The position numbers and the translations under genes were made by a program. The notes beneath the pieces are model-generated. The model searched no databases. It was given only the letters and a program-made list of their open reading frames with translations, and was not told where the DNA came from. A stretch of DNA of 64,000 bases. Source: an uncultured Chloroflexia bacterium. Its GTDB lineage: Bacteria > Chloroflexota > Limnocylindria > Limnocylindrales > CSP1-4. Each line of letters begins with the position of its first letter. Position 1 is the first letter of the stretch. Positions 2,267 through 53,860 of this stretch are shown here, one piece after another. The DNA is taken from contig CAVQJC010000006.1 of the NCBI GenBank assembly GCA_963712745.1, positions 64,001-128,000 of the forward strand, in the 5' to 3' direction.

Positions 2267-2466
2267 GCGACGGCCGTCGCGGAGCACCTTCGCGGCGGCC
2301 TTCAGATCCTTCCTGGTTCTCGCGCGGGCGCATGCTCGCGCTCCGAGAAGCCAAGGCCTAGACACCCCCTGACCGGCCCCCAGCCGGCGGCGAGGGACCC
2401 GTCCGCATCAGCCTGGGCCGGCACACCGTACGATGCCCACGGCGTCTGCCGTAGCCGGAGAACCCG

Positions 2467-3828
2467 ATGACCGTTGAGACCGATCGCCAGTCCTGGGAGC
2501 ACCTCCGCGAGCTGGCGGCAGCCGAGGACCGCGAGGCGCTGGACGCTGCCATCGGCGCCATGGAGCCCAGCGAGGCCGTGCGCGCCATCCTTCACCTGGA
2601 GCCCGAGGACCAGCAAGCCCTGCTGACCACGCTGTCTCCGCCGGAGGCCGCCGACCTCATCGAGGATGCGCCCGACGAGCAGGCCGCCGACCTCATCGAG
2701 CGGCTGACCCCGACCGACGCGGCCGCCATCGTGAACGAGATGCAGAGCGATGAGCAAGCCGACCTCATCGCCGACCTCGATCGGGCGGAGGCCGACGCCA
2801 TCCTGCGCGCGATGGAGCCGGATGAGGCCGCGGAGGTGCGGGCCCTGGCCGACTATCCGGACGATGTCGCCGGCGGCCTGATGATCACCGAGTTCCTGCA
2901 GGTCGGCGAGAACGAGACGGTGGGCGACACGCTCGACCAGCTCGTGGTCAACGCCGAAGACAGCGACGACCACTTCAGCCGCTACGTCTACGTCCTCTCG
3001 CCTCTCGGGCGGCTGGTGGGCGTGGCCGCCGCCAGCGTCCTCGCCGCCGCAGCCCGCACGCAGCGGGTCGCGGACGTGATGGTGCCACCGCTGTTCCGGG
3101 GCCCCACCACCGGACTCGACGAGCTGCGCGAGTTCTTCGAGGCCCATCCCATCGCGGCCGTCCCGGTGGTGGACCCGCGCGGCCGGCTGCTGGGCGTGGC
3201 CCGGCGCACAGCCGTGCTGGACGCAATCGCCGATCGCACCGAACGAGAGATGCTGCGCATGCACGGCATCGTCGGTGGCGACGAGGTGCGCTCGCTGCCC
3301 ACGGCCACCCGCTCACGACGCCGGCTCAGCTGGCTCAGCATCAACATCGTGCTCAACGTCATCGCTGCCAGCGTCATCGCCCTCTACATCGACACCCTCG
3401 ACCAGGTCATCGCGCTGGCGGTGTTCCTGCCCATCATCAGCGACATGTCCGGCGCCAGCGGCAACCAGGCCGTGGCCGTGAGCATGCGCGAGCTCTCGCT
3501 CGGCCTGGTCAAGCCCTACGAAGTCGGCCAGGTCTGGCTCAAGGAGATCACCGTCGGTCTCATCAACGGCGTGGCCCTGGGCCTGCTCATCGGGGCTGTG
3601 GCCATCCTCTGGGACGGCAGCCCCTGGCTGGGGCTCGTGGTCGGCGTGACATTGGCCCTGAACACGCTCATCGCGGTCTCGGTCGGCGGCACGGTACCGC
3701 TCATGCTCAAACGCTTCGGAGTGGACCCGGCCGTGGCCTCGGGGCCGATCCTCACCACCGTCACAGACATCTGCGGCTTCTTCATCGCGCTCAGCCTCGC
3801 CACACTGCTGCTGGACCGGCTGGTCTAG
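2467..3828 (+). CDS. mgtE: Magnesium transporter MgtE
   Basis: Acidic MgtE_N domain, AGGLM then a CBS pair, TM motifs SGASGNQA and DPAVASGPILTTVTD. Confidence 0.95.
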   Translation: MTVETDRQSWEHLRELAAAEDREALDAAIGAMEPSEAVRAILHLEPEDQQALLTTLSPPEAADLIEDAPDEQAADLIERLTPTDAAAIVNEMQSDEQADLIADLDRAEADAILRAMEPDEAAEVRALADYPDDVAGGLMITEFLQVGENETVGDTLDQLVVNAEDSDDHFSRYVYVLSPLGRLVGVAAASVLAAAARTQRVADVMVPPLFRGPTTGLDELREFFEAHPIAAVPVVDPRGRLLGVARRTAVLDAIADRTEREMLRMHGIVGGDEVRSLPTATRSRRRLSWLSINIVLNVIAASVIALYIDTLDQVIALAVFLPIISDMSGASGNQAVAVSMRELSLGLVKPYEVGQVWLKEITVGLINGVALGLLIGAVAILWDGSPWLGLVVGVTLALNTLIAVSVGGTVPLMLKRFGVDPAVASGPILTTVTDICGFFIALSLATLLLDRLV

Positions 3829-3944
3829 CAGATGCGAGTGATTGATCGGCCTCCGCTGCACGATGATTGATAGAGGTGCAAATACTACCGACGGCCGGCG
3901 TTCGACACACGAACGTTCCCGTGGCAAGCATGGATGAGAGACTG

Positions 3945-4745
3945 ATGTCGCAACGATCGATCGCCGCAATCGCTGACGTCCTCGAAGGCCAGGAGCCGAT
4001 CGTGGCTACGGCCATCCACGATGGTCATGAGCTGCGTGACGAGGTGGCAGCGCTGATGGCGCTGGAGGAGTCGGACCGACTTCGCGAAGAGGACCCCTTC
4101 ACGGGGATCTGGACGAGCGTGGTCACCACGCAGATCGTGGCCCGACGGTCACGCTTCGAGGTCGACCTCAACCGGCCCCGTGACAAGGCGGTGTACCGCA
4201 CACCGGACGACGCGTGGGGCCTGGTGATGTGGCGCGACGAGCTGCCCGAAGACGTGGTCCAGCGCTCGCTGGAGGAGTACGACGCCTTCTATGCGGAGGC
4301 TGAACGGGTCTTCTCCGAGCTGGAGCGACGCTACGGGCGTTTCGTGGTGTTCGACCTGCACTCCTACAATCACCGCCGCGGCGGGCCGGACGAGCCGGCC
4401 GAAGACCCCGAGGCGAACCCTGAAGTGAACGTGGGCACGGGCTCGCTTGACCGCGAGCGCTGGGGCCCACTCGTGGACCGCTTCATGACCGATCTGCGCG
4501 ATCACGACTTCCTGGGCCGGCATCTCGATGTTCGCGAGAACGTGCGGTTCCAGGGCGGATACCTGTCGAAGTGGGTCCATGAGACCTACCCACGATCGGG
4601 CTGCTGCCTGGCCATCGAGTTCAAGAAGTTCTTCATGGACGAGTGGACCGGGCGCATCTCGGCCGAGGAGTACGAGGCCATCCCGCAGGCGCTGCAGGCG
4701 ACGCTGGCCGGCATCATCGAGTCGCTTGGACTCATCGATCCATGA
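3945..4745 (+). CDS. N-formylglutamate amidohydrolase family protein
   Basis: TAIHDGH, REEDPFT, SRFEVDLNR, FDLHSY, ENVRFQGG and AIEFKK motifs; start could also be 3930. Confidence 0.88.
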   Translation: MSQRSIAAIADVLEGQEPIVATAIHDGHELRDEVAALMALEESDRLREEDPFTGIWTSVVTTQIVARRSRFEVDLNRPRDKAVYRTPDDAWGLVMWRDELPEDVVQRSLEEYDAFYAEAERVFSELERRYGRFVVFDLHSYNHRRGGPDEPAEDPEANPEVNVGTGSLDRERWGPLVDRFMTDLRDHDFLGRHLDVRENVRFQGGYLSKWVHETYPRSGCCLAIEFKKFFMDEWTGRISAEEYEAIPQALQATLAGIIESLGLIDP

Positions 4746-6700
4746 TCGACGTCGGCCTGGCGATGACGCTACAGGAGCCGTCGAGCACCGCCGATCCAGC
4801 AGATCCGCCGCGACACGAGACCGATGCCTTCGTCGAGGCCGTCTGCAGCCGGATCGGTGAGGGCAAGCCCCTGCGCCGGAAGCTCAGCCCGTGGGGCCGA
4901 GTGCATGTGGACCGCCCCCTGCCGTACGTGGCGGTCTACCGGCGACCGGTCAGTCGCCCCGATGCCGACACCGAATCGCTCATCGTGGGCGAGGCCTCGT
5001 ACGTCATCGCGGCCGGTGGGAAGCGGGCGCGCGCCGGGCTGAGCGCACTGGTCGAAGGCATCGCCAAGGTGCAGTCCGAGAGCTTCGGCGCCTTCCTCGT
5101 CATCGAGCTGTGGTCTACTCCTGACAGCAACCTGCCGCCTGGCCAGACCGCGTGGAGCCCGGGCTTCCGGATCCACCGACCGCGCAAGAGCCGCCTGGTG
5201 GCCACCATCAACTCGCTCGCCGACGCGCTCGGCGAAGTGCGGATCAAGGGTGCGTTCGCCGATGTCGAGATCGCCAGCGTCACCAGCGTCAGGCCCCCGC
5301 ACATGCCTCCGCTGTTGACGGCCAGCCAGGCGGCGGGACTCGGTGTCCACGTCATCGGACTGGAGGTCCAGCCGGTCTTCCGCGATCCGGGCCTGACCGA
5401 GAGCTATCCGCTCATCCATCGGGCCCTCCACCGCGGCATCTCACGGGCCATCAAGCGAGCCGTCTTCGACTTCACCCGACTGCGCACCTCGCATCGCCCG
5501 CCCAACTACCACGCCCTGGGACGGCACAGCGTGGTCAAGGCCGTCTGGGACGTGGACCGGCGACTGGCCCAGGTCAGCAACGAGTTCGACTTCATCCTGC
5601 AGGTCACGCCCACCAATGCCGACGCCGCGTGGGCCCAGTTCCGGCGCAGTCGCTTCGAGCTCGCGCCGGACTTCATGTCGCGTCCGCTCAAGCTCGACAC
5701 GGCCCTCGCCAAGCGGGAGCTCTTCAAGATCCCCATCGAACGCATCGAAGACCCGACCCTGGCGCAGCTGTTCCGCGACCAGCAGGTCTCGCTCGATCGC
5801 AGGCTGACGATGCTTGGCGACCGGGGCAAGCCGGAGTTCCTGTATGGGAGCCTGCAGCTCTTCGGCGGCGTGGACGAGCCCCTGCTCAACCTTGCCTACG
5901 AGGTGCTCAACCGGGTGCCCTCGAGGAGCCGCGACGATTCGCCTCGCGGGGCCGTCGATGCCAAGACCTTCGCCGCACGTGCCAGCGCCGAGATGGAGTA
6001 CTACCAGGGCATCCACCCGGGCGTGACCGGTGCGGTCGAGATCCGCCAGGACGTGGTCGGCGTGATGGTGTCGCGTGGGCGCGTGCTCGTGGGTACCCAG
6101 ACGAAGGTGCCGGTATCGCGGGTGGACGCGTTGCTTGCCCACGAGGTGGGCACCCACATCGTCACCTACATCAATGGCCGCGCGCAGCCGTTCCGCCAGC
6201 TCGCCATCGGCCTTCCCGGCTATGACGAACTGCAGGAGGGCTTGGCGGTGTTTTCCGAGTACCTTGCCGGGGGCTTCAGCCGACCGCGCTTGCGCCTGCT
6301 CGCGGCGCGCGTGCTGGCTGCGCGCCGCATGCTCGACGGTGCCGAGTTCGTGGAGGTCTTTCGCGAGCTCGACCGGGCGCATGACTTCGCGCAGCGAACG
6401 GCATTCAACGTGACCATGCGCGTGTTCCGCGGTGGAGGGTTGACCAAGGACGTGGTCTACCTGAGAGGTCTCGCGCGCGTGCTCACCTACCTGCGGGAGG
6501 GTGGTTCCCTGGAGCCACTCCTGGTCGGCAAACTGGGACCGGACCATATCCCCATCATCGAGGAGCTACAGTGGCGCAGGGTCCTGCAGCCTCCGCCACT
6601 GCGTCCGCGCCACCTCACCGATCCAGCCGCGATCGAGCGACTCGAGCGTGTCCGGCGCGGTGCATCGGTCCTTGATCTCGTGACGAAGGGACGAAGATGA
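4742..6700 (+). CDS. QEGLA-motif / DUF1704 (MATCAP-like) zinc metallopeptidase with N-terminal extension
   Basis: HEVGTH (HExxxH), literal QEGLA, RVFRGGGLTKDVVYLRG; ATGA overlap with the upstream gene. Confidence 0.9.
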   Translation: MIDVGLAMTLQEPSSTADPADPPRHETDAFVEAVCSRIGEGKPLRRKLSPWGRVHVDRPLPYVAVYRRPVSRPDADTESLIVGEASYVIAAGGKRARAGLSALVEGIAKVQSESFGAFLVIELWSTPDSNLPPGQTAWSPGFRIHRPRKSRLVATINSLADALGEVRIKGAFADVEIASVTSVRPPHMPPLLTASQAAGLGVHVIGLEVQPVFRDPGLTESYPLIHRALHRGISRAIKRAVFDFTRLRTSHRPPNYHALGRHSVVKAVWDVDRRLAQVSNEFDFILQVTPTNADAAWAQFRRSRFELAPDFMSRPLKLDTALAKRELFKIPIERIEDPTLAQLFRDQQVSLDRRLTMLGDRGKPEFLYGSLQLFGGVDEPLLNLAYEVLNRVPSRSRDDSPRGAVDAKTFAARASAEMEYYQGIHPGVTGAVEIRQDVVGVMVSRGRVLVGTQTKVPVSRVDALLAHEVGTHIVTYINGRAQPFRQLAIGLPGYDELQEGLAVFSEYLAGGFSRPRLRLLAARVLAARRMLDGAEFVEVFRELDRAHDFAQRTAFNVTMRVFRGGGLTKDVVYLRGLARVLTYLREGGSLEPLLVGKLGPDHIPIIEELQWRRVLQPPPLRPRHLTDPAAIERLERVRRGASVLDLVTKGRR

Positions 6701-7743
6701 AGATCGGTTTCATGGTCAACGATATCGCCACGGAGGAGCCCGGCTACACCACCAGTCGGCTCGCCATGGCCGCCATCAACCGAGGTCACGAAGCCTGGGT
6801 CATCGGGGCGGGTGACTTCGCCTACGACAGCGACGAGACGGTCAAGGCGCGCGCGACCGCGGCGCCGAAGAAGACCTACAAGTCGTCCGAGACCTACGTC
6901 TCCGACCTCAAGGGCAGACGCGCCAAGCAGGAGCGCATCAGCGTCGACGAGCTCGATGTGCTCATGCTGCGCAGCGACCCCTCCACGGACCTGGGCCACC
7001 GATCCTGGGCCCAGTCGTCAGGCATCATCTTTGGCCGGGTGGCGATGCGCACCGGCCTCATCGTGCTCAACGACCCCAACGGCCTGGCCAAGGCCATGAA
7101 CAAGATGTACTTCCAGTTCTACCCGGAGGAGGTCCGACCGCGCACGATCATCACGCGCTCGCGCGATGAGATCAAGGCGTTCTGGAAGGACGAGGGCGGC
7201 ACCATCGTGCTCAAGCCGCTGCAAGGGTCCGGTGGTTCCGGCGTCTTCCTGGTGCGACCTGGGGACGGCTCCAACCTCAACCAGATGGTCGACGCCGTGA
7301 GCCGCGATGGCTACGTCATCGCCCAGGAGTACCTGCCGGCGGCTGAGGAGGGCGACACCCGCCTGTTCCTCATGAATGGCCAGCCCCTGCGCTACCGCGG
7401 CAAGTACGCGGCCTTCCGCCGTGTGCGCTCCGGTGACGACATGCGCAGCAACATCCATGCCGGCGGCAAGCTGCGCGAAGCGGTCATCACCGATGCGCAT
7501 ATGCGAATCGCGGAGATCGTGCGCCCCAAGGTGGTGCAGGACGGGATGTTCCTGGTGGGTCTCGACATCGTCGGTGACAAGCTCATGGAGATCAATGTCT
7601 TCAGCCCCGGTGGGCTGGGCAGCGCGCAACGCTACGAGAAGGTCAACTTCGCCCATGCCGTCGTCGAGGCGCTCGAACGGAAGGTCGATTACATGACCTT
7701 CTATCGCCGCAATTTCGATAACGTGGACATGGCCACGCTCTGA
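6697..7743 (+). CDS. Glutathione synthetase (GshB)-like ATP-grasp ligase
   Basis: LMLRSDP, KPLQGSGG, QEYLP...GDTR, RSNIHAGG, GLDIVGDKLMEINVFSPGG; ATGA overlap. Confidence 0.88.
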   Translation: MKIGFMVNDIATEEPGYTTSRLAMAAINRGHEAWVIGAGDFAYDSDETVKARATAAPKKTYKSSETYVSDLKGRRAKQERISVDELDVLMLRSDPSTDLGHRSWAQSSGIIFGRVAMRTGLIVLNDPNGLAKAMNKMYFQFYPEEVRPRTIITRSRDEIKAFWKDEGGTIVLKPLQGSGGSGVFLVRPGDGSNLNQMVDAVSRDGYVIAQEYLPAAEEGDTRLFLMNGQPLRYRGKYAAFRRVRSGDDMRSNIHAGGKLREAVITDAHMRIAEIVRPKVVQDGMFLVGLDIVGDKLMEINVFSPGGLGSAQRYEKVNFAHAVVEALERKVDYMTFYRRNFDNVDMATL

Positions 7744-7795
7744 CCCTCCCGCGGTCACCCTCCGCGCCTAGCCATGGGAAGAGTAGGCTCGACCC

Positions 7796-8698
7796 ATGAG
7801 TGAACGCGAGTCGGGGCGCATGGCCTTCGGGATATGCATCCCCAACTTCCGGCGGGGCACCGGACCCGAGACGATGCTGGCGGCGACGCAGACGGCTGAG
7901 CGGCTGGGCTGGCACTCTGCCCTCGCGACCGATCACGTCCTGGTCGACAGCGCGGCCCGCGCGACCGACTATCGCCACATCTATGAGGCGCTCGCCAGCG
8001 TGTCCTGGCTGGCCGGTCAGACGACCATGATCCGCCTGGGCATGAGCGTGCTCGTCGTGCCCATGCGCAACGCGCTCGTGCTGGCGAAGGAGCTGGCCAC
8101 CATCGACGCGCTCAGCGACGGACGGCTGATCGCGGGTGTCGGCATCGGCTGGAACAAGACCGAGTTCGAGAGCCTGGGCGAAGGCCAGCGCTTCGCACAC
8201 CGGGGCACCTGGCTAGAGGAGACGGTCGCGCTGTGGCGCCACCTCTGGGCCGGTGGCACAGGCCCGTACGCGGGCCGCTTCGACAGCTTCACTGAGGGCT
8301 ACTTCTCACCCCTGCCACCGCAAGGCGAGGACCTACCCATCTGGATCGGGGCCAGCGCCGAGCCGGCCCTGCGCCGTGCGGGACGCATCGCCGACGGGTA
8401 CCACTCCACGCGCACCGATCCCGACACCATGCGCGAGCGTGTCCGGGTCGTGGGCGAAGCGGCGGCTGAAGCCGGGCGATCGATGCCCGCGGTCTCGGCC
8501 CGACTGACCGTCGACTTCACGCACACGCGCCAGGGACCCTCGATCCTCACCGGCAGCCCCGAGGACATGGCCGCGGGCGTGCGCGCCTACGCCGACGCCG
8601 GCACCGAGCACCTGGCGCTCGACTTCGGCGAGGTCCACCCCGACGCGGTGGCGCGCGCCATCGAGCGATTCGACCGCGAGGTCATCCCCGCGCTCTAG
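7796..8698 (+). CDS. LLM-class (probably F420-dependent) oxidoreductase
   Basis: TDHVLV, IRLGMSVLVVPMRN, LATIDALSDGRL, GVGIGW, PIWIG. Confidence 0.88.
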   Translation: MSERESGRMAFGICIPNFRRGTGPETMLAATQTAERLGWHSALATDHVLVDSAARATDYRHIYEALASVSWLAGQTTMIRLGMSVLVVPMRNALVLAKELATIDALSDGRLIAGVGIGWNKTEFESLGEGQRFAHRGTWLEETVALWRHLWAGGTGPYAGRFDSFTEGYFSPLPPQGEDLPIWIGASAEPALRRAGRIADGYHSTRTDPDTMRERVRVVGEAAAEAGRSMPAVSARLTVDFTHTRQGPSILTGSPEDMAAGVRAYADAGTEHLALDFGEVHPDAVARAIERFDREVIPAL

Positions 8699-8802
8699 CG
8701 CACCGGCGACCGATCAGAGGAGCCAGGCCGGCCCTCACGCCGTTGCGCCCGACCGAACCACCGCGAGATTCTCGGGTGTCGAGCACTACACTCCGACGAG
8801 GC

Positions 8803-8816
8803 GGCAAGCGACTGCC
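8803..8816. promoter_or_regulatory. Possible LacI-type operator upstream of the GH94 gene
   Basis: GGCAAGCGACTGCC, an imperfect palindrome with central CG, just downstream of a TACACT -10-like box. Confidence 0.3.
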
Positions 8817-8847
8817 GGCGGCCCAAGGCATGTGACGGGAGGGATCG

Positions 8848-11304
8848 ATGAGGTTCGGACGTTTCGATGACGAGCGGCGGGAGTACGTCATCGAGCGGCC
8901 CGATACGCCGCTGCCCTGGATCAACTACCTCGGCAGCGACGACTACCTGGGGCTCATCTCCAACACCGCCGGCGGCTACTCGTTCTATCGCGATGCGCGC
9001 CTGCGACGCCTCACGCGCTACCGCTACAACAACGCCCCCCTCGATGTCGGCGGCCGCTACATCTACGTCCGCGACGATGACAGCGGCGATTACTGGAGCC
9101 CCTCGTGGCAGCCGGTCGGCCGCGAGGTCGAGGGCTACGAGTGCCGCCACGGTCTGGGCTACACGGTCATCGGGTCCCGAAACGCCGACATCCACACTGA
9201 GACCACCTACTTCGTGCCCCTCGGGCAGACGCTCGAGGTCTGGCGCACTCGCATCACCAACGAGCGCCCCGAGCCCGCCCGGCTCTCGCTCTTCAGCGCG
9301 GTCGAGTGGTGCCTCTGGGACGCGCAGGACGACGCCACCAACTTCCAGCGCAACTACTCGATCGGCGAGGTGGAGGTCGAGGACGAGGTCATCTACCACA
9401 AGACCGAGTACCGCGAACGCCGCGACCACTTCGCCTGGTTCGCCTGCTCCGAGCCGCTGGCCGGTTTCGACACCCAGCGCGACGACTTCCTGGGCCCCTA
9501 CCGTGGCTGGAACAGGCCGCTCGCCGTGGAAGAAGGTCGAGCTCGCGACTCCGTGGCCCACGGCTGGCAGCCGGTCGGCTCGCATCACGTGCGCCTGGAG
9601 TTGGCTCCAGGCGGGACACGCGAGGTCATCTTCACGCTCGGCTACGCAGAGAACCCCGCCCACGCCAAGTTCGACCCGCCTGGCTCACAGACCATCGCCA
9701 AGTCCGGCGTGCGCCCGCTCATCGAGCGCTACCGAGAGCCCGCCCAGGTCGAACTGGCGCTCGAGGAGCTCACCGCCCACTGGGACGAGCTGCTGGGCGC
9801 GTTCCAGGTCAGCACACCCAACGAGCACCTGGACCGCATGGTCAACACCTGGAACGCCTACCAGTGCATGGTCACGTTCAACCTCAGCCGCTCAGCCTCG
9901 ATGTTCGAGTCGGGCATCGGCCGAGGGATGGGCTTCCGCGACTCCAACCAGGATCTGCTCGGCTTCGTGCACATGGTCCCCGATCGTGCCCGGGAACGCA
10001 TCCTCGATATCAGCGCCACGCAGCTGCCCAGCGGCGGCGCCTATCACCAGTACCAGCCGCTGACCAAGCGCGGCAACGATGCGGTCGGCTCCGGCTTCAA
10101 CGACGATCCCGCCTGGCTCGTGCTGGGCGCCGGCGCCTACCTTCGTGAGACCGGCGACACCTCGATCCTCGACGAGCTGGTGCCCTATGACAACGAACCG
10201 GGCACCGAGACGCCGCTGTACGAGCACCTCGTGCGGGCCATCGAGTACACCCTCGACCGACTTGGCCCACACGGGCTCCCGCTCATCGGCCGGGCCGACT
10301 GGAACGACTGCCTGAACCTCAACTGCTTCAGCCAGACTCCCGGCGAGTCCTTCCAGACGACCGAGAACCGAGAGGGAGGCGTGGCCGAGTCGGTCTTCAT
10401 CGCCGCGCTTTTCATCTTCGCCGCCGCAGAGATGCGCCAGATCGCCGCGCTCCGGCACGACGGGATCTTCGGCCGGCGCTGTGCCGAGGCTGGGGCCGCC
10501 ATGAACGAGGCCATCGACGCGCACGGCTGGGACGGCGCCTGGTTCCGCCGGGCCTACGACTTCTTCGGTCATGTCGTCGGCTCGGCCGAGAACGAGGAGG
10601 GCCGCATCTTCATCGAGCCACAGGGCATGGCCGTCATGGCCGGGGTCGGCCTCGAGGATGGTCGGGCGCAGACCGCGTTGGCCTCCGTCCGCGAGCATTT
10701 GGCCACACCCCACGGCATCGTGCTGCTGCAGCCGGCGTTCAGCCGGTACCAGCTCGAGCTGGGCGAGATCTCGACCTACCCACCCGGGTACAAGGAGAAC
10801 GCTGGCATCTTCTGTCATACCAACCCCTGGCTGATGCTGGCCGAGGCGAAGGTCGGCAACGGCGACGGCGCGCTCGACTACTACCTGCGCATCAACCCTT
10901 CGGCGCGCGAGGGCATCTCGGAGATCCACCGCTGCGAGCCGTACGTCTACGCCCAGATGATCGCGGGGGTGGATGCGCCCACCCACGGCGAGGCCAAGAA
11001 CTCATGGCTGACCGGTACCGCCGCGTGGAACTTCGTGGCTGCCACCGAGGGCATCCTCGGCATCCGCGCCGAGCACGATGGGCTGCGCGTGGATCCGGTC
11101 CTGGCAGCTGACTGGTCGGGCTTCACGGTGAGCCGGCGCTTCCGGGGAACGACCTACCGCATCACCGTCGAGAAGGAGCCCGGCCGGACGGGCCGCGTGG
11201 GCTCGCTGGTGGTGGACGGTCAAGCGGTCCCAGGCAACATCATCCCGGCGCCGTCGGAGCCGGGCGGCATCGTCGAGGTCAGCGCCCTGATCGAGGGCAA
11301 CTGA
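8848..11304 (+). CDS. GH94 glycoside phosphorylase, cellobiose phosphorylase-like
   Basis: TPLPWINYLG, GRGMGFRDSNQD, ADWNDCL (catalytic Asp), KENAGIFCH, SWLTGTA. Confidence 0.93.
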   Translation: MRFGRFDDERREYVIERPDTPLPWINYLGSDDYLGLISNTAGGYSFYRDARLRRLTRYRYNNAPLDVGGRYIYVRDDDSGDYWSPSWQPVGREVEGYECRHGLGYTVIGSRNADIHTETTYFVPLGQTLEVWRTRITNERPEPARLSLFSAVEWCLWDAQDDATNFQRNYSIGEVEVEDEVIYHKTEYRERRDHFAWFACSEPLAGFDTQRDDFLGPYRGWNRPLAVEEGRARDSVAHGWQPVGSHHVRLELAPGGTREVIFTLGYAENPAHAKFDPPGSQTIAKSGVRPLIERYREPAQVELALEELTAHWDELLGAFQVSTPNEHLDRMVNTWNAYQCMVTFNLSRSASMFESGIGRGMGFRDSNQDLLGFVHMVPDRARERILDISATQLPSGGAYHQYQPLTKRGNDAVGSGFNDDPAWLVLGAGAYLRETGDTSILDELVPYDNEPGTETPLYEHLVRAIEYTLDRLGPHGLPLIGRADWNDCLNLNCFSQTPGESFQTTENREGGVAESVFIAALFIFAAAEMRQIAALRHDGIFGRRCAEAGAAMNEAIDAHGWDGAWFRRAYDFFGHVVGSAENEEGRIFIEPQGMAVMAGVGLEDGRAQTALASVREHLATPHGIVLLQPAFSRYQLELGEISTYPPGYKENAGIFCHTNPWLMLAEAKVGNGDGALDYYLRINPSAREGISEIHRCEPYVYAQMIAGVDAPTHGEAKNSWLTGTAAWNFVAATEGILGIRAEHDGLRVDPVLAADWSGFTVSRRFRGTTYRITVEKEPGRTGRVGSLVVDGQAVPGNIIPAPSEPGGIVEVSALIEGN

Positions 11305-17641: not shown

Positions 17642-20638
17642 GTGATGAGCGACGCACGAGTCTGTCCGCATTGCGGCAACTTGAACGAGCCCGGCATGCT
17701 GTTCTGCGCTGCCTGCGACGGATTGCTGCCGCTCGGAGCCGATGACTGGGACGCCCCTCCCGCGAACATGGCGGTTCCACCCGCCGATGTGTCGCTGTGC
17801 CCGAACTGCCAGACCCGAAACCCGAGCGACTATGCCAACTGCTGGCGCTGCCTCGCCGACCTGACCCCATCGGACGTGCTCGCCGACGACGCGCCGTCGA
17901 CGTCGCAGTCGGCAAGCCTCGCGACACCGCCGATGTGGGCAGCCGCCGATCCCGGCCAGGTTCCGGCCGCTGACGTCACGGCCGACGACGAGGTGTCGCC
18001 AAGCGAGGAGCCGGCGATCGCCCCGCCAACGGCGGACCGGCCGCAAGGCGCGCCGCTGCAGCCGACGGTGGCCGCGGAGCCGGTAGTGGCCGCGGAGCCG
18101 GTAGTGGCCGCGGAGCCGGTAGTGGCCGCGGAGCCGGTAGTGGCCGCGGAGCCGGTAGTGGCCGCGGAGCCGGTAGTGGCCGCGGAGCCGGCGCAGCGCG
18201 ATCAGCGTCGTCGTGTGCCCGCGAGCGCGGGCCTGGGGGTCGTCGCGCTGGGCCTGGTCGGGGCAGTGGTGGCCGCCTGGTTGCTGGCTGGGCCTGGCGA
18301 AGATCCCCTGGTTACTGCCGAAGCCTCGGCCTCGCCGATCGCCGCGGTCACGCCCGCTCCGGCCGGAACCGACACCGAGCCAACGGCGGAGCCTGTATCG
18401 GCTGCGGTCGACCAGGACGCCCTTGCCGAGCCTACAGCGACCCCCACGCCCACGCCGACGCCCGAGCCCACGCCGACGCCGACACCCACGCCCACGCCCG
18501 AGCCCACGCCCGAGCCCACGCCCGAAGCCGACACCCACGCCCACGCCAGAGCCCACGCCCGAGCCGACACCGGAGCCCACGCCGACACCCACGCCCGAGC
18601 CCACGCCCGAGCCGACGCCCGAGCCCACGCCGACGCCGACACCCACGCCCACGCCCGAGCCCACGCCCGAGCCCACGCCGGAGCCCACGCCCGAACCGAC
18701 ACCCACGCCCACGCCCACGCCCGAGCCGACGCCCGAGCCCACGCCGAACCGACACCCACGCCGACGCCCGAGCCCACGCCCGAGCCGACCCACGCCGAGC
18801 CCACGCCCGAGCCGACACCCACGCCGACGCCGAGCCCACGCCCGAGCCGACGCCCGAGCCCACGCCGGAACCGACACCCACGCCGACGCCCGAGCCCACG
18901 CCCGAGCCGACGCCCGAGCCCACGCCGGAACCGACACCCACGCCGACGCCCGAGCCCACGCCCGAGCCGACGCCCGAGCCCACGCCGGAACCGACACCCA
19001 CGCCGACGCCCGAGCCCACGCCCGAGCCGACGCCCGAGCCCACGCCGGAACCGACACCCACGCCGACGCCCGAGCCCACGCCCGAGCCGACGCCCGAGCC
19101 CACGCCGGAACCGACACCCACGCCGACGCCCGAGCCCACGCCGACGCCCACGCCGACGCCCGAGCCCACGCCCGAGCCGACACCCGAACCGACGCCGACG
19201 CCCGAGCCCACGCCCGAGCCCACGCCCGAGCCCACACCCACGCCGACGCCCGAGCCGACACCGGAGCCCACGCCCGAGCCGACGCCCGAGCCCACGCCCG
19301 AGCCGACGCCCGAGCCCACGCCCGACGCCGACGCCCGAGCCCACGCCCGAGCCCACGCCCGAACCGACGCCCGAGCCCACGCCCGAGCCGACGCCCGAGC
19401 CCACGCCCGAGCCGACGCCCGAGCCCACGCCCGAGCCGACGCCCGAGCCCACGCCGGAACCGACGCCCGAGCCCACGCCCGAGCCGACGTCCGAGCCCAC
19501 GCCGGAACCGACGCCAGAGCCGACGCCCGAGCCGACGCCCGAGCCGACGCCAGAACCGACGCCCACACCGACACCGGAGCCCACGCCGGAACCGACACTA
19601 GAGCCCACGCCGACACCCGAACCGACGCCGACGCCCACGCCGGAACCGGTGTCCTTAGCGGCGGCCGCACTCGTGGAGCGGGCATCGGGGCTCGGGTGCC
19701 AACCAGGCGACACGACTGCCGAGGATGAGAGCGCCGGCGTCCTCGCCACCGCGACCTGCCAACCGCCCGCAGACGATGTCACCAGCATCACGCTCCAGGA
19801 CTTCGAAGACGCCGACACCCTTCGCACCGCATGGCAGTCGTCGCTGGCTACGACCAGCTCGCTCGACACCGCGGAGGACGCCTGTAGGACGTCCGAGCCT
19901 GGCAGGCGGAAGTGGGGTTTCGGCAACATCGCCTGCACAAGCGAGGACGGCGTCGCGCGCATCCTCTGGACCGACTCCCGCACCGAAACGCTCGGTGTGA
20001 TCGAGAGCACCGTCGACGACATCCCTGCGGTCCATCAGTGGTGGCGGGCCAACGCTCGTCGCCTGGGCCGCGTCGACGACCCCGCGGCAACACCCACGGC
20101 ACCCAGCACGCCGGAGGCGACGCCTCGACCAGCAGGGCGCAAGGTCGTGCGGGTGCCTGGCAAGCCGCGTGCCATCAGCTGCGCCGCGACGGACACCCCG
20201 ATCCCCGACGAATGGAATCGCAGCTGGCGCATAGCCAGGGTCGAATTCCAGAACCGGGCTGGCTATGAGCGCGTCATCCTCAACCTCGAGCGCACGGGCA
20301 AGAATCGCACTGGGACTCCGACCAGGGCACAGATCTCGCGGATGTCGGTCGCGCGGGCCGCGGAGGCCGTGCCCAAGACAGCGGCGCCGACACGAGGCCG
20401 CGTCGCCATCGTGGTCGACCTTGATGGTGTGCGCGGTGCGCCCCGGCTCATCCGCTTCAAGCCCAAGAGCATCGATCTCGTGAAGCAGATGTCGATCGTG
20501 AAGAGCGTGGGTGGTCGGACCGTGGTGCTCTCAGCCCCGCAAGGCACCTGCTATCAGATGCGCATCCCGGTTTGGGGCGCCAATGCGCGCGGCAACGAGA
20601 AGAAGGCTGAGATCTTCATCGACCTGGCGGTGCCGTAG
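17642..20638 (+). CDS. Large bitopic cell-surface protein: double zinc ribbon, TM helix, about 400-aa Pro/Thr/Glu stalk, Cys-containing and AMIN-like C-terminal domains (indels within the repeat)
   Basis: CPHCG/CAAC and CPNC/CWRC; [21 protein letters not shown]; TPEP repeats switching frame; C-terminal [17 protein letters not shown]. Confidence 0.75.
18068..18190 (+). repeat. 18-bp coding tandem repeat x7 (VAAEPV)
   Basis: gtggccgcggagccggta repeated. Confidence 0.95.
18428..19650 (+). repeat. TPEP/TP coding repeat array with a 60-bp higher-order unit x5 (18841-19140)
   Basis: acgcccgagccc-type 12-mers; five consecutive identical 60-nt lines. Confidence 0.95.
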
Positions 20639-27709: not shown

Positions 27710-27775
27710 TGAGAGTTCTCTCGGTCCTGAGAATATTCTCAATGGACGCTAGCACGCTGTGCGCGGCCGAGTCAA
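27710..27775 (-). promoter_or_regulatory. Promoter with tandem operators upstream of the SorC-family operon
   Basis: TTGACT-18-TAGCGT on the minus strand; palindrome TGAGAATATTCTCA (27728-27741) and variant TGAGAGTTCTCTCG (27710-27723). Confidence 0.75.
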
Positions 27776-27941
27776 CCGAATCTGCAAACGGATGCGGGCT
27801 CCGCGACGCGTCGACGAATGAGCCGAGGCGGCGCTGCAGCGGGGGTTCTACGCGGGATCCCGGGGGCCACGCCGGCGTGGGCGGGTGCTGCGCCCGATCG
27901 GGGAGCCACGGTGCGCGAGGCCGCGCTCGCTTGTGCCTGGT

Positions 27942-27997
27942 GCACGAGTCCGACAATGCCGCGCACGAGTCCGACAATGCCGCGCACGAGTCCGACA
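27942..27997. repeat. 21-bp tandem repeat x2.7
   Basis: gcacgagtccgacaatgccgc. Confidence 0.9.
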
Positions 27998-28092
27998 CGA
28001 CAGTGGCCAACCAGTCTGTCCGTTTGCATCTGGCGCGCAACCGCGACGTTCCCTTGCACGTCGCACGATGGACCGGCGAATCTCGCTCGGCG

Positions 28093-28266
28093 GACTGGCG
28101 ACATCGCACTCGCACTGGTCGAACTCGTGCCTCTGGTGCAAGCCGATCCGGGCCGCAAGCCGATCCCGGTGCAAGCTGATCCGGGCCGACTGGCGACATC
28201 GCACTCGCACTGGTCGAACTCGTGCTCCCGGTGCAAGCCGATCCGGGCCGCAAGCCGATCCGGGCC
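28093..28266. repeat. About 95-bp tandem duplication with internal 17-bp subrepeats
   Basis: gactggcgacatcgcactcgcactggtcgaactcgtgc at 28093 and 28188; gcaagccgatccgggcc variants x5. Confidence 0.85.
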
Positions 28267-28269
28267 GGA

Positions 28270-28560
28270 CGCTCCATCGACCTCACCATCCCGGTCCACC
28301 AGGACGACCGAGGGGAGCGCGGAGGAGGCGGCCACGCCCCGGATCTCGGCCCGGTCGACGCCGCGTACGGCGAGGACCTTGCGAACCATGCGGCAGAAGG
28401 CGTCCCAGTAGCGTGGCGCATCGTGCTCCGACCAGCCGGGGTGGTCGGTGTGGATGGGGTATTCCTCGTAGGCGTAGCCGAGCTGCGCGCCGGTGGGATC
28501 GATGAGCGCGACCTTGGCGCCGCCGGTGCCGTAGTCAGCGCCCAGCAGGTAGTCGGCCAT
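28270..28560 (-). pseudogene. 5' fragment (about 95 aa) of an FGGY kinase
   Basis: GADYGTGGAK, PGWSEHD, VLVDRDGEV, then homology stops abruptly at the repeats. Confidence 0.85.
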
Positions 28561-41020: not shown

Positions 41021-41347
41021 GCTGAAGGGCGGCCCCGATGCCGCCAGCTTCTGCGCTAAAAGGGCGCCGCGGTCAACCTCACCCGGGCCATGGCCATCGA
41101 CCATGGCCCGCAGGGCATCCGCGTCAACTGCATCTGTCCGGGCGACACCGATACGCCGATGCTGCGCTCGGAGGCTCGCCAGCTGGGGCTGGACGAGGCG
41201 ACCTTCCTGGAGGAGTCCGCGGACCGGCCGCTGCGCCGGTTGGGCACGGCCGCGGACATCGCTCGCGCTGTCCTCTACTTGGCTTCGGACGAATCGGCCT
41301 GGGTCACCGGCTCCACCCTGGTGGTCGATGGCGGCGGGCTGGCCTGA
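41021..41347 (+). pseudogene. 3' remnant of an SDR oxidoreductase
   Basis: KGAAVNLTRAMA, IRVNCICPG, VTGSTLVVDGG; Rossmann N-terminus missing; YxxxK degraded. Confidence 0.8.
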
Positions 41348-44687: not shown

Positions 44688-45492
44688 GGACGACCTCCAG
44701 ACCCTGCTCCTCGAGCAGCGCGGCCGTGACGTCGTCCATGCCGGTGTCGGTGTAGATGATGTCGACCTCGTCGATGTCGGCGAAACGAAACAGCTGCTCG
44801 CTGCCTACCTTGGAGTGATCGAACATCATCACCACGCGCCGGGCCGCCGCCATCATCGCCTGCTTGATGGCCACCTCCTCGCGGTAGGGGGTGGTGAAGC
44901 CTCGCTCCGGGGACATCCCGTCGCAGCCGATGAAGGCAACGTCGACGGTCATGTCGCGCAGCGTCTCCACCCCGGTTTCGTCGACGAAGGCCAGTGTCCG
45001 CCGGCGCAGCGCACCGCCGAGCACGATCACGTGCGGGCGCTCGGTGGTCGCAAGTGAACGGATGATGGGGACGTGGTTGGTGATGACCGTGAGGTCGCGC
45101 TCGCGGTCGAGGACATCGGCCAGCTGGAGCGCAGTGCTGCCCGAGTCGATGATGAGCGAGCCGTGCGCCGGGATCTCGGCGGCTGCGGCATGGGCGATTC
45201 GCCGTTTCTCTGCCACGTTGTGGCTCTCGCGAACCTCCAGACGCGGCACGATGACCGAGCCACGCCACGGCACCGCCCCGCCGTGGACGCGTCGACCAAG
45301 CGCTCGCGCTGGAGCTCGGTGAGGTCTCGGCGGATGGTCTCGCCGGTGACCTCGAACTCCTCGGCCAGCTCGCCCACGTCGACGCGTCCACGCTCCAGGA
45401 CGAGCTTCATGATCTGCGCGCGCCGCTCTCCTCCGGAACAGCGGGCCTGCTGGCGCGCGGTCACGATTCGCGGGGGCGTCAGCCTGATCCAT
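44680..45492 (-). CDS. DeoR/GlpR transcriptional regulator (compensating frameshifts near 45437 and 45290)
   Basis: ERRAQI...ETIRRDL HTH in one frame; RVHGGA, DSGST, DHSK in another. Confidence 0.8.
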   Translation of the reverse strand: MDQADAPANRDRAPAGPLFRRRAARADHEARPGAWTRRRGRAGRGVRGHRRDHPPRPHRAPARALGRRVHGGAVPWRGSVIVPRLEVRESHNVAEKRRIAHAAAAEIPAHGSLIIDSGSTALQLADVLDRERDLTVITNHVPIIRSLATTERPHVIVLGGALRRRTLAFVDETGVETLRDMTVDVAFIGCDGMSPERGFTTPYREEVAIKQAMMAAARRVVMMFDHSKVGSEQLFRFADIDEVDIIYTDTGMDDVTAALLEEQGLEVVRV

Positions 45493-46976
45493 CAACTCAC
45501 TCCGTTCAGCCACCTCTCGAGCGTACGGTACGTGCCGTACTCACGGATCGAGGTCAACGCGTCAGTGAAGGCGGAAACGAACCGCGGATCGGCCGGAAGG
45601 CGCGGACCGAAGACATCGCTGAAGCGAAGGAGTGCCGCCGGTTCCGAGACCGACGCGCGGGCGTATTCCTGCGCCTCATCCAGGCGCGGGTCAGGCGAGA
45701 TGCTGATGTCGCGCCCCTCGTCGTCCACCCCCAGCAGGTACTGGCACCAGCCCGCGAGCGCCAGGGCGGAGAGCTTGACCTGGCCGCCCGTCTCCAGCTG
45801 CGACTCGATGGTCGGCACCAGGAACTTGGGCCACTTGGAGGTGCCATCGAGACAGACGCGCGCGACCTGGTCGCGGACCTCCGGGTTGGCGAAGCGCTCG
45901 GCCACGACCCGCTTGTAGTCGGTCACGTCGATGCCGGCCACCGGCGGCAACGAAGGCGTGGCCTCATCGTCGTGGAACTGCTGCAGGTACCGGGCCAGCG
46001 GCGGGTCGGCCATGATCTCGTGGATGTAGGTGTGCCCGACCAGCGCGGCCATGTAGGTGAGCGTCGAGTGGCCCGCGTTGAGGATGCGCAGCTTGAGCGT
46101 CTCGTAGGGCCGGACGTCGCCGGTCAGTCAGCACGCCGACGTCCTCGTAGGGCGGCCGGCCATAGGGGAACTCGTCCTCGATGACCCACTGGATGAAGGT
46201 CTCGGCCACGACCGGCCAGCGGTCGACCAGGCCGTACTCCTCCGCGAGGAAGGCGCGATCGGCGTCGGCCGTCTGCGGCGTGATGCGGTCGACCATGCTG
46301 TTGGGGAAGGCGACGTTGTCGGCCGACCCAGCGTTCGAGGCCGGGCTCGACCATGGCGCAGACGCCGAGCGTGGCCGTCCGTGCCACGTCGCCGTTGCCC
46401 ATGACGTTGTCGCAGCTCTGCACGGTCAGGCCACCGAGGCCCGCGTCGCGCCGTCGCTGGAAGGCGCGTGCCAGCGACTCGAACGCGGGCGGCAGCGCGT
46501 CGGCCGGCGGCGCCAGGAACTCGCCGCTGCTCTCGTCGACGGGGTAGCCGCCCTCGGTGATGGTCATCGACACGATGCGCGTGTCCGGGCTGGCGATGCG
46601 CGCCACCAGCGGCTCGATGTCGTCGGCGGCAAGCACGTAGTCGGTGATGGAGCCGATGACGCGCACGTTCGTGGCGTGCACGTCGCGGGTCACCAGCGCG
46701 TAGAGGTAGTCCTGGGCAGCGAGAGCGTCGGCCATCGCCGCGTCCGCCGGACAGGACGCCGGCGCCGGTGATCGACCAGTCGGTCACGCCCGCGCCACAG
46801 ACGTCGTCGAGGTAGACCGCCTGGTGGGCGCGGTGGAAGCCGCCCACGCCGATGTGGACGATGCCACCACCGAGCGCGCTGCGGTCGTAGGCGGGGATCG
46901 AGATGCGTGGATCGAGCCGGCCGAGGTTCTCCGCGGAGAGCTCGATACGGCGCCGGCGGCCGTCGTCAGCAGTCAT
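45492..46976 (-). CDS. Mannitol dehydrogenase family protein (frameshifts near 46745, 46325, 46130)
   Basis: IVHIGVGGFHRAHQA, MTITEGGY, SCDN, MVDRITP, QWVIED, RFANP across four ORF pieces. Confidence 0.85.
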
Positions 46977-52306: not shown

Positions 52307-53794
52307 CTAGCTGGCCATCACCCGTGCCACCGCCGCGTCGATGTCCGCCCGTGACGGCAGCGGCCGGTCGCCGTGGCAGCGTTTGAACTTGCGACCACTC
52401 CCGCAGGTGCAGGCGTCATTGCGCCCGCGCGCGGCGTCCTCGGCGCCGTAGGCGTACATGATCTCGGCCGCCGCCCGCCCGGAACGCAGCAGCGTGCCCA
52501 TCGCCTGCATCGCCGGCATGACGTGCCCAAAGAACAGCTTGTAGCCGGGACAGAGGTAGTTGAGCCCGGGCTCGCCGTAGGGGTCGTCGCGGAACCGGTC
52601 CTTAGGGCAGCCTCCGTGGCACACCGAGCGCACGTCGCACTCGCGGCAGAAGCGCGGCAGCCTGTCGCGCTTGTCCAGGCCGAAGATCTCCATCTGCGGC
52701 GAGGCCACGAGCTCGGCCATGTGCGTCTCGTGGATGTTGCCCAGCTTGTAAGCCGGCTCCACGAAGTGGTCGCAGGTGTAGAGGTCGCCGTTGTGCTCGA
52801 GGGCCGGGCCGCGGCCACAGGTCTCGGCGTGGATGCACAGACCGGGCGGCGCGCCCACCACGTTGGCCAGCGTGACGTCGAACATCTGGACGTAGACGGA
52901 GCCCACGTCGCGCCGGACCCACTCCTCGAAGACATCGACGAGGAAACGGCCGTACTGCTCCGAGCCGATCGAGCGACTGGTGACCAGGTCCCCCTTCTGC
53001 TCGTAGAGCGGCCGAGCCTTGTTGCTGTCGCCCCAGCCTGCCTCGGCGATCTCGATGAGCTCGGGCGTGGCCCGCTCGATGATGGGGATGAACTGGACGA
53101 AGCGAGCCCCCACCTCGTCGCGGAAGAAGCGGTAGACCTCCTTGCCGCGGTCACCGTTGACAGCGTGGACGGTGCAAAGGATGTTGAACTCCGCTCCGGC
53201 GTCGGTCAGCAGGCGCGCCGCGCGCATGACCTTCGCGTGGGTGCCCGCCCCGCCCTTGTCGACGCGCTGCGCGTCGTGGATGTCGGCAGGGCCGTCCATC
53301 GACAGGCCGATGAGGAAGTTGTGCTCGGCGAAGAAGGCCGCCCACTCCTCGTCGAGCTTGGTGCCGTTGGTCTGGAGCGTGTGCTCGATGATCTGGCCGG
53401 GCCTGCGGTACTTCTCCACCAGCTTCATCGTGTCGCGGTAGAAGTCGAGGCCCATGAGCGAAGGCTCGCCTCCCTGCCAGGCCACGGTCACACGCTCGCT
53501 GCGGTGACCCTCGATCAACTGCCGGATGTACTGCTCGTGCGTCTCATCGGTCATCCGGAACTTGCTGCCCGGATAGAGCGCCTCCTTGGACAGGAAGAAG
53601 CAGTAGGTGCAATCGAGGTTGCAGATCGCGCCGGTAGGCTTGGTCAGGACGTGGAAGTTGGCTGGGGCGCTCGCCGGCAGGTCCGGTAGCACCGGCAGCA
53701 TTCGGGTCCCGACTCCTCCGTCCGTGCCCCCATCGGTCGACTGTGGCGGGCCTGTCACCACATCCTCGCGGGTGAAGGTACGGGTAGGGTCCAT
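52307..53794 (-). CDS. Anaerobic sulfatase maturase (radical SAM/SPASM) with SEC-C tail
   Basis: KPTGAICNLDCTYC, WQGGEP, QTNG, CDHFV, CxxC...GGCPK, GRNDACTCGSGRKFKRCH. Confidence 0.93.
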   Translation of the reverse strand: MDPTRTFTREDVVTGPPQSTDGGTDGGVGTRMLPVLPDLPASAPANFHVLTKPTGAICNLDCTYCFFLSKEALYPGSKFRMTDETHEQYIRQLIEGHRSERVTVAWQGGEPSLMGLDFYRDTMKLVEKYRRPGQIIEHTLQTNGTKLDEEWAAFFAEHNFLIGLSMDGPADIHDAQRVDKGGAGTHAKVMRAARLLTDAGAEFNILCTVHAVNGDRGKEVYRFFRDEVGARFVQFIPIIERATPELIEIAEAGWGDSNKARPLYEQKGDLVTSRSIGSEQYGRFLVDVFEEWVRRDVGSVYVQMFDVTLANVVGAPPGLCIHAETCGRGPALEHNGDLYTCDHFVEPAYKLGNIHETHMAELVASPQMEIFGLDKRDRLPRFCRECDVRSVCHGGCPKDRFRDDPYGEPGLNYLCPGYKLFFGHVMPAMQAMGTLLRSGRAAAEIMYAYGAEDAARGRNDACTCGSGRKFKRCHGDRPLPSRADIDAAVARVMAS

Positions 53795-53860
53795 GCAGCA
53801 GAGACTACAGGCCGCGTACGCTTGCGGCACTCACACGACTTGCCGAGGAGCCAACAGCGC

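Follow-up and report, generated by a model that had tools for sequence, protein, structure and literature searches.

What would a bacterium build, or take apart, with two zinc hydrolases and a glutathione synthetase-like ligase encoded in one tight cluster? This question is raised by a locus in a stretch of 64,000 nucleotides (nt; G+C 69%) from an uncultured Chloroflexia bacterium (contig CAVQJC010000006.1 of assembly GCA_963712745.1), hereafter called the window, where three genes encode an amidohydrolase of the N-formylglutamate amidohydrolase (FGase) family, a metallopeptidase related to the tubulin carboxypeptidase MATCAP and an ATP-grasp ligase resembling glutathione synthetase (GshB). 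An earlier reading of these letters, here the original prediction, had proposed that this triad does not make glutathione (GSH) and that it runs a reversible cycle, adding and removing terminal amino acids on a protein, peptide or metabolite. Our analysis found the three genes kept together across more than ten phyla. Taken as a whole, we give an even chance to the explanation which fits them best, a self-contained and horizontally mobile module that is not a glutathione pathway and that would act on a small acidic substrate.

Organization of the triad

In the list of open reading frames (ORFs) and in the sequence itself, the triad consists of three ORFs of the same (+) strand, at 3867/3930/3945-4745, 4742-6700 and 6697-7743. 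The first gene (protein P0001; 3930..4745, +) is assigned by Pfam to the FGase family (PF05013) of zinc amidohydrolases and, by its NCBIfam score, is not HutG. It starts at the ATG of 3930, giving 271 amino acids (aa), or at that of 3945, giving 266 aa; its nearest homologue (locus L021) begins at the position equivalent to 3945. The second gene (P0002; 652 aa; 4742..6700, +), whose ATG at 4742 sits within an ORF of 4643-6700, encodes a two-domain protein in which an apparently degenerate FGase-like domain precedes a gluzincin carboxypeptidase-like domain (MATCAP/DUF1704/TIGR02421). The third (P0003; 348 aa; 6697..7743, +) encodes an ATP-grasp ligase, placed by NCBIfam in the PRK12458 (NF009110) subfamily. 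Stop and start codons overlap in an ATGA between the first and second genes (4742..4745, +) and again between the second and third (6697..6700, +), so the junctions on which the original prediction was built can be read directly from the sequence. The nearest relatives of the locus lie on contigs that are likewise labelled Chloroflexia, with peptidases 76-79% and ligases 95% identical.

The ligase and glutathione synthetase

One answer would be a thiol-peptide pathway, in which the ligase serves as a second glutathione synthetase or as a gamma-Glu-Cys-X synthetase and the hydrolases recycle glutathione-like peptides. Public annotation of these proteins as glutathione synthase leans this way, and so does the full-length alignment of P0003 with Escherichia coli GshB (PDB 1gsa; E 1.1e-39), which is collinear at 30% identity with catalytic residues in common. 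In the search of the PDB with the ligase profile, the E-value of 1gsa is inflated, as the alignment itself held E. coli GshB. P0003 matches the Pfam domains GSH-S_ATP (166.4 bits) and GSH-S_N (45.1 bits). It has the full-length ATP-grasp architecture of GshB (PDB 1GSA/1GSH/2GLT), with its Gly-rich loop, arginines and E-x-N motif, and the triad ligase retains both GshB lid loops. Within the ligase family the columns K173, G177/G179, R222, E298 and N300 are conserved, and E298 and N300 align with the Mg-ligand positions of GshB. The catalytic motifs are invariant in all three families of the triad.

Curated cut-offs nevertheless separate the two ligases in both directions. P0003 scores 482 against NF009110/PRK12458 (cut-off 408; profile positions 1-349 of 349), a subfamily which itself carries the name 'glutathione synthetase', and falls below both GshB equivalogs, NF003573 (212.8, cut-off 272) and TIGR01380 (196.7, cut-off 299.05). 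E. coli GshB, taken as the control, passes both with 496.2 and 464.4 and reaches only 222.3 on PRK12458, under the cut-off of 408. Four more triad ligases, from Sinorhizobium meliloti, Pontibacter and two from locus L007, are under both GshB cut-offs; the ligase of Photobacterium is intermediate, as it passes one narrowly (284.6 against 272), a point in favour of the thiol pathway, and fails the other at 236.3. A quick maximum-likelihood tree (IQ-TREE) separates them as well. Its 81 rows, with fragments excluded, were 77 ligase ORFs of 330-400 aa found at E <1e-100, the window protein, the S. meliloti and Pararhizobium ligases and E. coli GshB, whose branch amounts to 9.3 changes per column against a median end branch of 0.12 within the family. 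Across phyla, the triad ligases are 55-95% identical to P0003, with a mean column identity of 71%. They share an 18-residue conserved C-terminal extension (YMxYYRRNFDNxEMATL), a 5-residue insertion ahead of the large loop and FSPGG in place of the TSPT of GshB; the segment EINVFSPGG (residues 298-306; 7588..7614, +) indeed aligns with EINVTSPT of E. coli GshB, the difference first pointed out in the original prediction.

The genetic evidence points in the same direction. Among the 56 further window ORFs scanned against Pfam, none belongs to the GshA or GCS2 families, confirming that the window holds no gamma-glutamylcysteine ligase, and no gshA family recurs as a conserved neighbour of related triads; the triad ligases, in contrast to GshB, are coupled to two hydrolases. 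S. meliloti carries the triad on pSymB, yet its chromosomal gshB (SMc00419) single mutant contained no GSH by high-performance liquid chromatography (PMC7063052). Because the ligase scores under the GshB cut-offs and this triad carrier loses its GSH with gshB, the view that the locus does not serve glutathione synthesis is supported. Judged on sequence, the triad ligase is a family separate from GshB, and a thiol-peptide pathway becomes a most improbable answer.

Other ATP-grasp families are more distant. The RimK model TIGR00768 gives 68.5 on P0003 (cut-off 143.4), although RimK is the next-closest solved ligase after GshB (4iwx, 5zct; E about 3e-8). No TTL or TTLL structure was recovered with the ligase profile in the PDB at E up to 10. 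RimK, the C-terminal glutamate ligase of ribosomal protein S6, represents a neighbouring ATP-grasp family which adds residues to a C-terminus, and one report pairs it with a partner protease, RimB, that regulates the modification (PMC11957791); the partner hydrolases of the triad are of other folds.

The two hydrolases

Enzymes of the FGase family act on N-formyl-Glu, and their fold relative PghP acts on poly-gamma-glutamate. P0001 scores 78.6 bits against the FGase profile PF05013 (cut-off 28.9) over profile positions 2-214 of 219, and H30, E53, D55, D142, H144 and E230 are invariant in 25 homologues that are 47-81% identical to it. It differs from HutG in scoring 17.5 on the HutG equivalog TIGR02017, where the cut-off is 278.75, and no hut genes were found among the window ORFs scanned with Pfam. 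Against PDB sequences, the FGase-family profile gave nothing significant and P0001 alone gave 0 matches.

The C-terminal part of P0002 (residues 299-632; 5636..6637, +) is a MATCAP-like catalytic domain by both Pfam and Foldseek. It scores 294.5 bits against MATCAP/DUF1704 (PF08014; cut-off 27), and the protein lies barely above the cut-off of the 'QEGLA' family TIGR02421 (344.7 against 338.65). A profile search retrieved human MATCAP (7z5g/7z6s) at E 1e-6. In an AlphaFold model of whole P0002 (pLDDT 85, pTM 0.75), this part superposes by Foldseek on human MATCAP 7z6s_C (E 1.8e-8, TM 0.68 on target), followed by DUF885 and M32 carboxypeptidases. The HExxxH zinc motif reads HEVGTH (residues 467-472; 6140..6157, +) and aligns with HEIGTH of human MATCAP, while the QEGLA motif (residues 498-502; 6233..6247, +) aligns with its EEGLA. 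H467, E468 and H472 are invariant in 21 of 21 aligned homologues, and so are Q498, E499, G500 and A502 in these 21. From this alignment E499 is presumed to be the third zinc ligand; a study of MATCAP-type enzymes names the EEG motif as their putative third metal-binding site, and reports that MATCAP/TMCP act on acidic tails of proteins and on polyglutamate chains, with Tyr and Glu as the C-terminal residues taken off (PMC10499314). The three family assignments of the original prediction, FGase-type hydrolase, HExxxH/QEGLA metallopeptidase and GshB-like ligase, are thus confirmed.

Residues 1-270 of P0002 have no Pfam match, yet they are kept in all long forms of the peptidase. They contain a domain of about residues 27-270 (4820..5551, +), recognized by predicted fold and by hhalign, which folds alone with a pLDDT of 87 into a phosphorylase/hydrolase-like structure. 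With the whole model, Foldseek matched this part to the phage poly-gamma-glutamate hydrolase 3a9l and to PNP/MTAN enzymes; with the isolated domain, it gave many PNP/MTAN structures at E about 4e-5. Among these many matches, the longest and tightest superpositions were on N-formylglutamate amidohydrolase 2q7s (E 9.5e-5, 270 columns, rmsd 6.9, TMq 0.42) and on PghP 3a9l (rmsd 6.0, TMt 0.46). By hhalign, the domain aligns with the FGase family of the triad itself (E 1.6e-4, probability 50%) and with the true FGase domain that occupies the same place in a Photobacterium fusion protein (E 2.6e-6, probability 89%). In both alignments E122-x-W124 faces the D-x-H of the FGase family (D142 and H144 of P0001, invariant in 25/25). 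Most likely, therefore, the N-terminal domain is a degenerate FGase copy which lacks one metal-binding histidine, and it may now bind instead of cleaving.

In a representative library of 50% identity clusters, the N-domain profile found 857 clusters at E <=1e-3 and 683 at E <=1e-10; among the 150 matches listed there are long forms (about 620-660 aa) and shorter fragments, but no new architecture. A look-alike search of a structure atlas with this domain returned no usable match. The predicted complex of the full peptidase with the FGase-like protein scored 0.00 against a mark of 0.32, which is evidence neither way.

A module found across phyla

Is the arrangement peculiar to this bacterium? 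A profile of 21 diverse full-length P0002 homologues, scanned across genome contigs, found at least 592 stretches that encode one, of which the best 80 with their 6-kb flanks form the locus set used here. Its peptidases are the closer long-form relatives (43-79% identity), so that the set is a non-random sample of the family, and three loci (L014, L020, L035) are incomplete because the contig edge is reached on the relevant side. To call partner genes, P0001 and P0003 served as local phmmer queries against every ORF of 70 aa or longer, with matches counted at E <1e-20; neighbour families came from blastp clustering of the 3161 ORFs of the 80 loci.

Of the 80 loci, 70 have the complete triad within 6 kb, 77 have the ligase and 71 the FGase-like gene, and the strict order FGase-peptidase-ligase on one strand with gaps <400 nt is found in 59; the peptidase is alone in two (L040, L078). 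These loci belong to Chloroflexota, Myxococcota, Calditrichota, Acidobacteriota, Ignavibacteriota, Bacteroidota, Planctomycetota, Pseudomonadota, Gemmatimonadota, Verrucomicrobiota, Actinomycetota, Chlorobiota and others. The clustering recovered the peptidase and ligase joined in one cluster (80 loci) and the FGase (71 loci). No other cluster is present in more than 13 loci. Two reach this number: the first is made up of ORFs that run antisense within the FGase gene, and the second is a family of ABC-ATPases that come largely from Pontibacter loci. As no further gene family exceeds 13 of the 80 loci, the module appears self-contained; in particular, no conserved substrate gene, regulator, transporter or gshA emerged among the neighbours of the triad by this clustering. 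The neighbourhood conservation that the original prediction asked for is therefore real, and goes far beyond what chance would give.

The module also travels. By tblastn, the peptidase was found on 128 plasmid records, most of them megaplasmids of rhizobia (79 from Sinorhizobium). One plasmid of Pararhizobium is annotated with TetR, N-formylglutamate amidohydrolase, QEGLA protein and 'glutathione synthase' genes, and pSymB of S. meliloti bears all three triad genes, strain 1021 being among the matches; there the flanking sugar-type ABC transporter, glycosyltransferase and P-type ATPase genes are uninformative. The ligase tree is discordant with the species phylogeny, grouping Prosthecochloris with an acidobacterial sequence and Scalindua with Gammaproteobacteria, which suggests that the module moves horizontally.

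Gene fusions tie the three activities more closely. Among 49 longer ligase relatives, 45 carry an FGase domain, 3 a MATCAP domain and 1 is an unrelated chimera. The FGase-ligase fusions measure about 625-700 aa, and the three that were rescanned begin with the FGase domain and end with the ligase. In the peptidase-ligase fusions the MATCAP domain comes first and the ligase second, as in one of 982 aa on a 1.65-Mb contig; these could be faked by a sequencing error, since the two genes overlap by 4 nt, an origin that the FGase-ligase fusions cannot have. The third combination is found in Photobacterium sp. GJ3, where a 342-aa ligase is followed by a 665-aa FGase-MATCAP fusion, with a true FGase domain in residues 39-237 (hhalign against the stand-alone FGase, E 1.2e-38) and the MATCAP domain in residues 329-662. 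That all three pairwise fusions exist speaks strongly for the three activities being parts of a single process.

These counts also bear on a catabolic or salvage role, in which the hydrolases would degrade a compound rich in glutamate that the cell has taken up or stored, with the ligase left to a side reaction or to re-synthesis. Poly- or oligo-glutamate, N-acyl-glutamate and tails of the folyl-polyglutamate type are examples of such a compound. The FGase-like fold does group with PghP (3a9l) and FGase (2q7s), two hydrolase functions face one ligase, and MATCAP-family enzymes remove glutamates (PMC10499314). However, no member of the triad is as conserved or as constant as the ligase (77/80 loci), which is also the fusion partner in 48 of the 49 long forms, and the conserved neighbours of the triad in the 80 loci include no uptake system. 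Such a role is thus very unlikely.

Variants of the module multiply the ligase. Two or three ligase paralogs occur in 12 of the 80 loci, and peptidase-ligase pairs are repeated in L035, L042 and L063. In six loci, from Gammaproteobacteria (one labelled Enterobacteriaceae) and Scalindua, a second paralog (L2) lies between the peptidase and the usual ligase (L1), at L007:6393-7439, L036:5621-6667, L052:7251-8297 and three more places. L2 copies form their own clade with support 100, as L1 copies do with support 99; their loops are altered, and at the Mg-ligand positions E298 is replaced by D or G and N300 by D. L2 scores 403.9 on PRK12458, just below the cut-off of 408. L2 may represent a different specificity or an inactive partner.

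A short-form QEGLA protein of 426 aa from a Pseudoalteromonas megaplasmid (L084 5737-7017) has neither a ligase nor an FGase neighbour, so the triad appears limited to the long-form and fused clades. The gene of this short form adjoins a redoxin family gene and a gene for a pyridoxal phosphate-dependent enzyme.

Ion transport and salinity

Where, then, might such a module be needed? In the window, an MgtE Mg2+ transporter gene identified by Pfam (2467..3828, +) stops 101 nt before the triad and may be co-transcribed with it; a scan of 2300-8900 gave 0 promoter-like and 0 terminator-like sites and thus sets no operon limits. MgtE genes are within 6 kb of the triad in 12 of the 80 loci, MscS-type channel genes also in 12 with a second MscS subfamily in 7, CNNM/CorC genes in 8 and Na+/Ca2+ exchanger genes in 3. 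Altogether, 23 of the 80 loci have an ion-transport or channel neighbour of these families, often <300 nt away; in 13 of these 23, the distance from the triad to the closest of these genes is <350 nt. They are labelled Chloroflexia, Calditrichia, Ignavibacteria, Bacteroidota, Planctomycetota, Acidobacteriota, Myxococcota, Actinomycetota, Verrucomicrobiota and Gammaproteobacteria. In two Calditrichia loci (L009 2572-13469 and L050 1041-13218) the triad sits inside a run of MscS-type, CNNM/CorC, MgtE_N+CBS-only and MgtE genes, mostly on one strand; locus L072 adds a Na+/Ca2+ exchanger and a PPK2 polyphosphate kinase, and on the Pararhizobium plasmid an MscS-family gene lies 3.8 kb from the triad. 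The MgtE, CNNM and MscS families have few genes per genome, and these neighbours would therefore be enriched, an estimate that leans on general gene frequency in place of a random-locus control.

Expression data from Photobacterium damselae RM-71 lead to the same physiology. In a published expression comparison, the gene RS17020 ('glutathione synthase', 1029 nt) is up 38.4-fold at 1% against 3% NaCl, RS17025 (QEGLA, 1983 nt), which overlaps it, is up 27.5-fold, and the DUF413 gene preceding RS17020 is up 9.1-fold (PMC10308900). The locus RS17010-RS17025 is collinear with positions 2814-7308 of L085, the locus of Photobacterium sp. GJ3, in which a LysR (HdfR) gene and a DUF413 gene precede those for the 342-aa ligase and the 665-aa FGase-MATCAP fusion. 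The triad seems, in short, tied to salt and magnesium balance.

What the module may do

GshB- and RimK-type ligases join an amino acid to a free carboxylate. Because ligases of this kind extend carboxylates and both hydrolase families cut before a residue with a free alpha-carboxylate, the three enzymes would act on one C-terminal extension. The simplest reading is that the module builds and trims such an extension, probably acidic, on one substrate. The PRK12458-type ligase would add, driven by ATP, an amino acid to the free carboxylate of a substrate that is not encoded by the module. The two carboxypeptidase-type zinc hydrolases would cut amide bonds beside a free alpha-carboxylate in the same substrate or in its precursor, the MATCAP-like domain taking off the C-terminal residue and the FGase-like enzyme cleaving a bond of the N-acyl-Glu type. 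In this way the module would interconvert free amino acids, glutamate for example, and a condensed form, and may serve the cytoplasmic balance of solutes and cations (Mg2+, K+-glutamate). Condensing free glutamate-type solutes and releasing them again would fit the induction at a salinity down-shift. That ligase and hydrolases oppose or assist each other on one shared substrate, other than GSH, we regard as slightly better than an even bet.

As the module encodes no substrate and crosses phyla, it must act on something universal, be it a metabolite or a conserved protein. Four features favour a small one: the ligase retains the closed small-substrate architecture of GshB, FGase enzymes act on small molecules, the multi-ligase arrays and repeated pairs resemble stepwise peptide assembly, and the neighbours are solute and cation channels and transporters. 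Tentatively, and with rather less than even confidence, we propose a small acidic peptide or an N-acyl amino acid. By analogy, the logic would be like that of known small-peptide ligase/hydrolase pairs, in which an ATP-grasp-type ligase and hydrolases share one small amide and, in one case, a single protein. Glutathionylspermidine synthetase and amidase form one such pair; in another, N-acetylaspartylglutamate synthetase, which is RimK-like, is matched by glutamate carboxypeptidase II and aspartoacylase.

Perhaps, instead, the extended molecule is a protein. The ligase would then lengthen by one or more residues the C-terminal tail of some conserved housekeeping protein, a ribosomal one or an ion-transport regulator for example, and the MATCAP-like peptidase would trim it, as in the RimK-S6 or TTL/MATCAP-tubulin systems. 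In support, both sequence and predicted fold show the peptidase domain to be a true homologue of MATCAP, RimK is the closest solved ligase after GshB (E 3e-8), the ligase is very highly conserved across phyla and peptidase-ligase pairs are duplicated as units in three loci. Such an eraser would be in character for MATCAP-family enzymes, which trim acidic protein tails and polyglutamate (PMC10499314). On the other hand, no candidate substrate gene is found in the module or among its conserved neighbours in the 80 loci, the ligase has the architecture and lid loops of GshB and not of RimK, whose model it misses (68.5 against 143.4), TTL/TTLL structures are absent even at E up to 10, and the known substrate of FGase, the other hydrolase family, is a small molecule. 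We consider this protein-tail alternative unlikely.

A bolder version sees in the triad a bacterial forerunner of tubulin tyrosination and detyrosination. TTL has an ATP-grasp fold and opposes the MATCAP peptidase in eukaryotes, and the triad peptidase domain is homologous to MATCAP, with the HExxxH and E/Q-EG-LA motifs aligned. Compared with the tubulin cycle (TTL/TTLL, MATCAP/TMCP), however, the triad ligase is GshB-like, its peptidase has an extra FGase-like N-domain, there is a third enzyme and there is no tubulin; bacteria are not known to have a tail of the tubulin -EEY type. A GshB-like writer and a MATCAP-type eraser would here act reversibly on the C-terminal tail of a conserved cytoplasmic protein, which might belong to the ribosome or regulate Mg2+ or mechanosensitive transport. 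The FGase-like enzyme and its degenerate copy would supply the trimming and recognition parts. As a whole, we consider this idea unlikely. If this were true, tail modification would tune ion and osmotic homeostasis after a salinity shift.

Returning to the small-substrate module, several observations weigh against it. The MATCAP-family enzymes characterised so far work on protein tails (PMC10499314), and RimK, the next-closest solved ligase, modifies a ribosomal protein. RimK is also co-induced with the Photobacterium pair, being up 52-fold in the same low-salt table (PMC10308900), which speaks for the protein-tail alternative. The extreme conservation of the ligase equally fits a macromolecular partner. 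A fusion in which ligase and hydrolase did nothing but undo each other's work would amount to a futile cycle, and the hydrolases may therefore act otherwise than proposed here. The S. meliloti mutant indicates that the paralog fails to supply GSH under laboratory conditions, nothing more. Finally, 57 of the 80 loci have no ion-transport neighbour, and a masked stretch in L080 makes the ORF calls there unreliable.

Remaining features of the window

Two luciferase-like monooxygenase genes are present in the window, at 7796-8698 (+) and 58549-59436 (+), the first beginning 52 nt past the ligase. A link of the triad to F420 through this downstream gene was considered and dropped, as the triad occurs in many phyla and this neighbour is not conserved among the 80 related loci in the ORF clustering.

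The C-terminal and Rossmann domains of a mannitol dehydrogenase are split between 45492-46052 (-) and 46124-46735 (-), which may point to a frameshift or a disrupted gene. In a region of sugar and polyol catabolism, an FGGY kinase ORF at 27772-28560 (-) covers only positions 1 to 89 of the profile, and an 85-aa ORF at 41090-41347 (+) matches only the C-terminal end of a short-chain dehydrogenase; both pieces are possible gene remnants. A 998-aa ORF at 17642-20638 (+) has an N-terminal double zinc ribbon as its sole recognised part and an unusually high G+C of 0.68 at second codon positions. Moreover, a radical SAM/SPASM protein (52307-53830, -) bears a C-terminal SEC-C motif, and a Mut7-C RNase (61919-62668, -) is fused to a ubiquitin-like domain.

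Implications

No study of the triad was found in CC-licensed PMC papers and bioRxiv; subscription journals were outside this scope and an earlier in-silico mention is possible. Iyer et al. (2009, Mol Biosyst) reportedly surveyed ATP-grasp gene neighbourhoods. Two elements are new here relative to the original prediction, namely the degenerate FGase domain of the peptidase and the lead towards Mg2+ and osmotic balance.

In hundreds of bacterial genomes from more than ten phyla, S. meliloti included, the ligase is labelled 'glutathione synthetase', and its partner goes under the name of 'flavohemoglobin expression-modulating protein'. Each of these names probably misleads, which affects the inference of thiol metabolism from genomes. 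The module ranks among the more conserved enzyme sets that lack an assigned substrate, and it holds bacterial relatives of the eukaryotic tubulin carboxypeptidase MATCAP that are already paired with an ATP-grasp ligase. Its link to MgtE, CorC and MscS genes, together with the induction at low salt, offers a concrete physiological condition under which this substrate may be sought.

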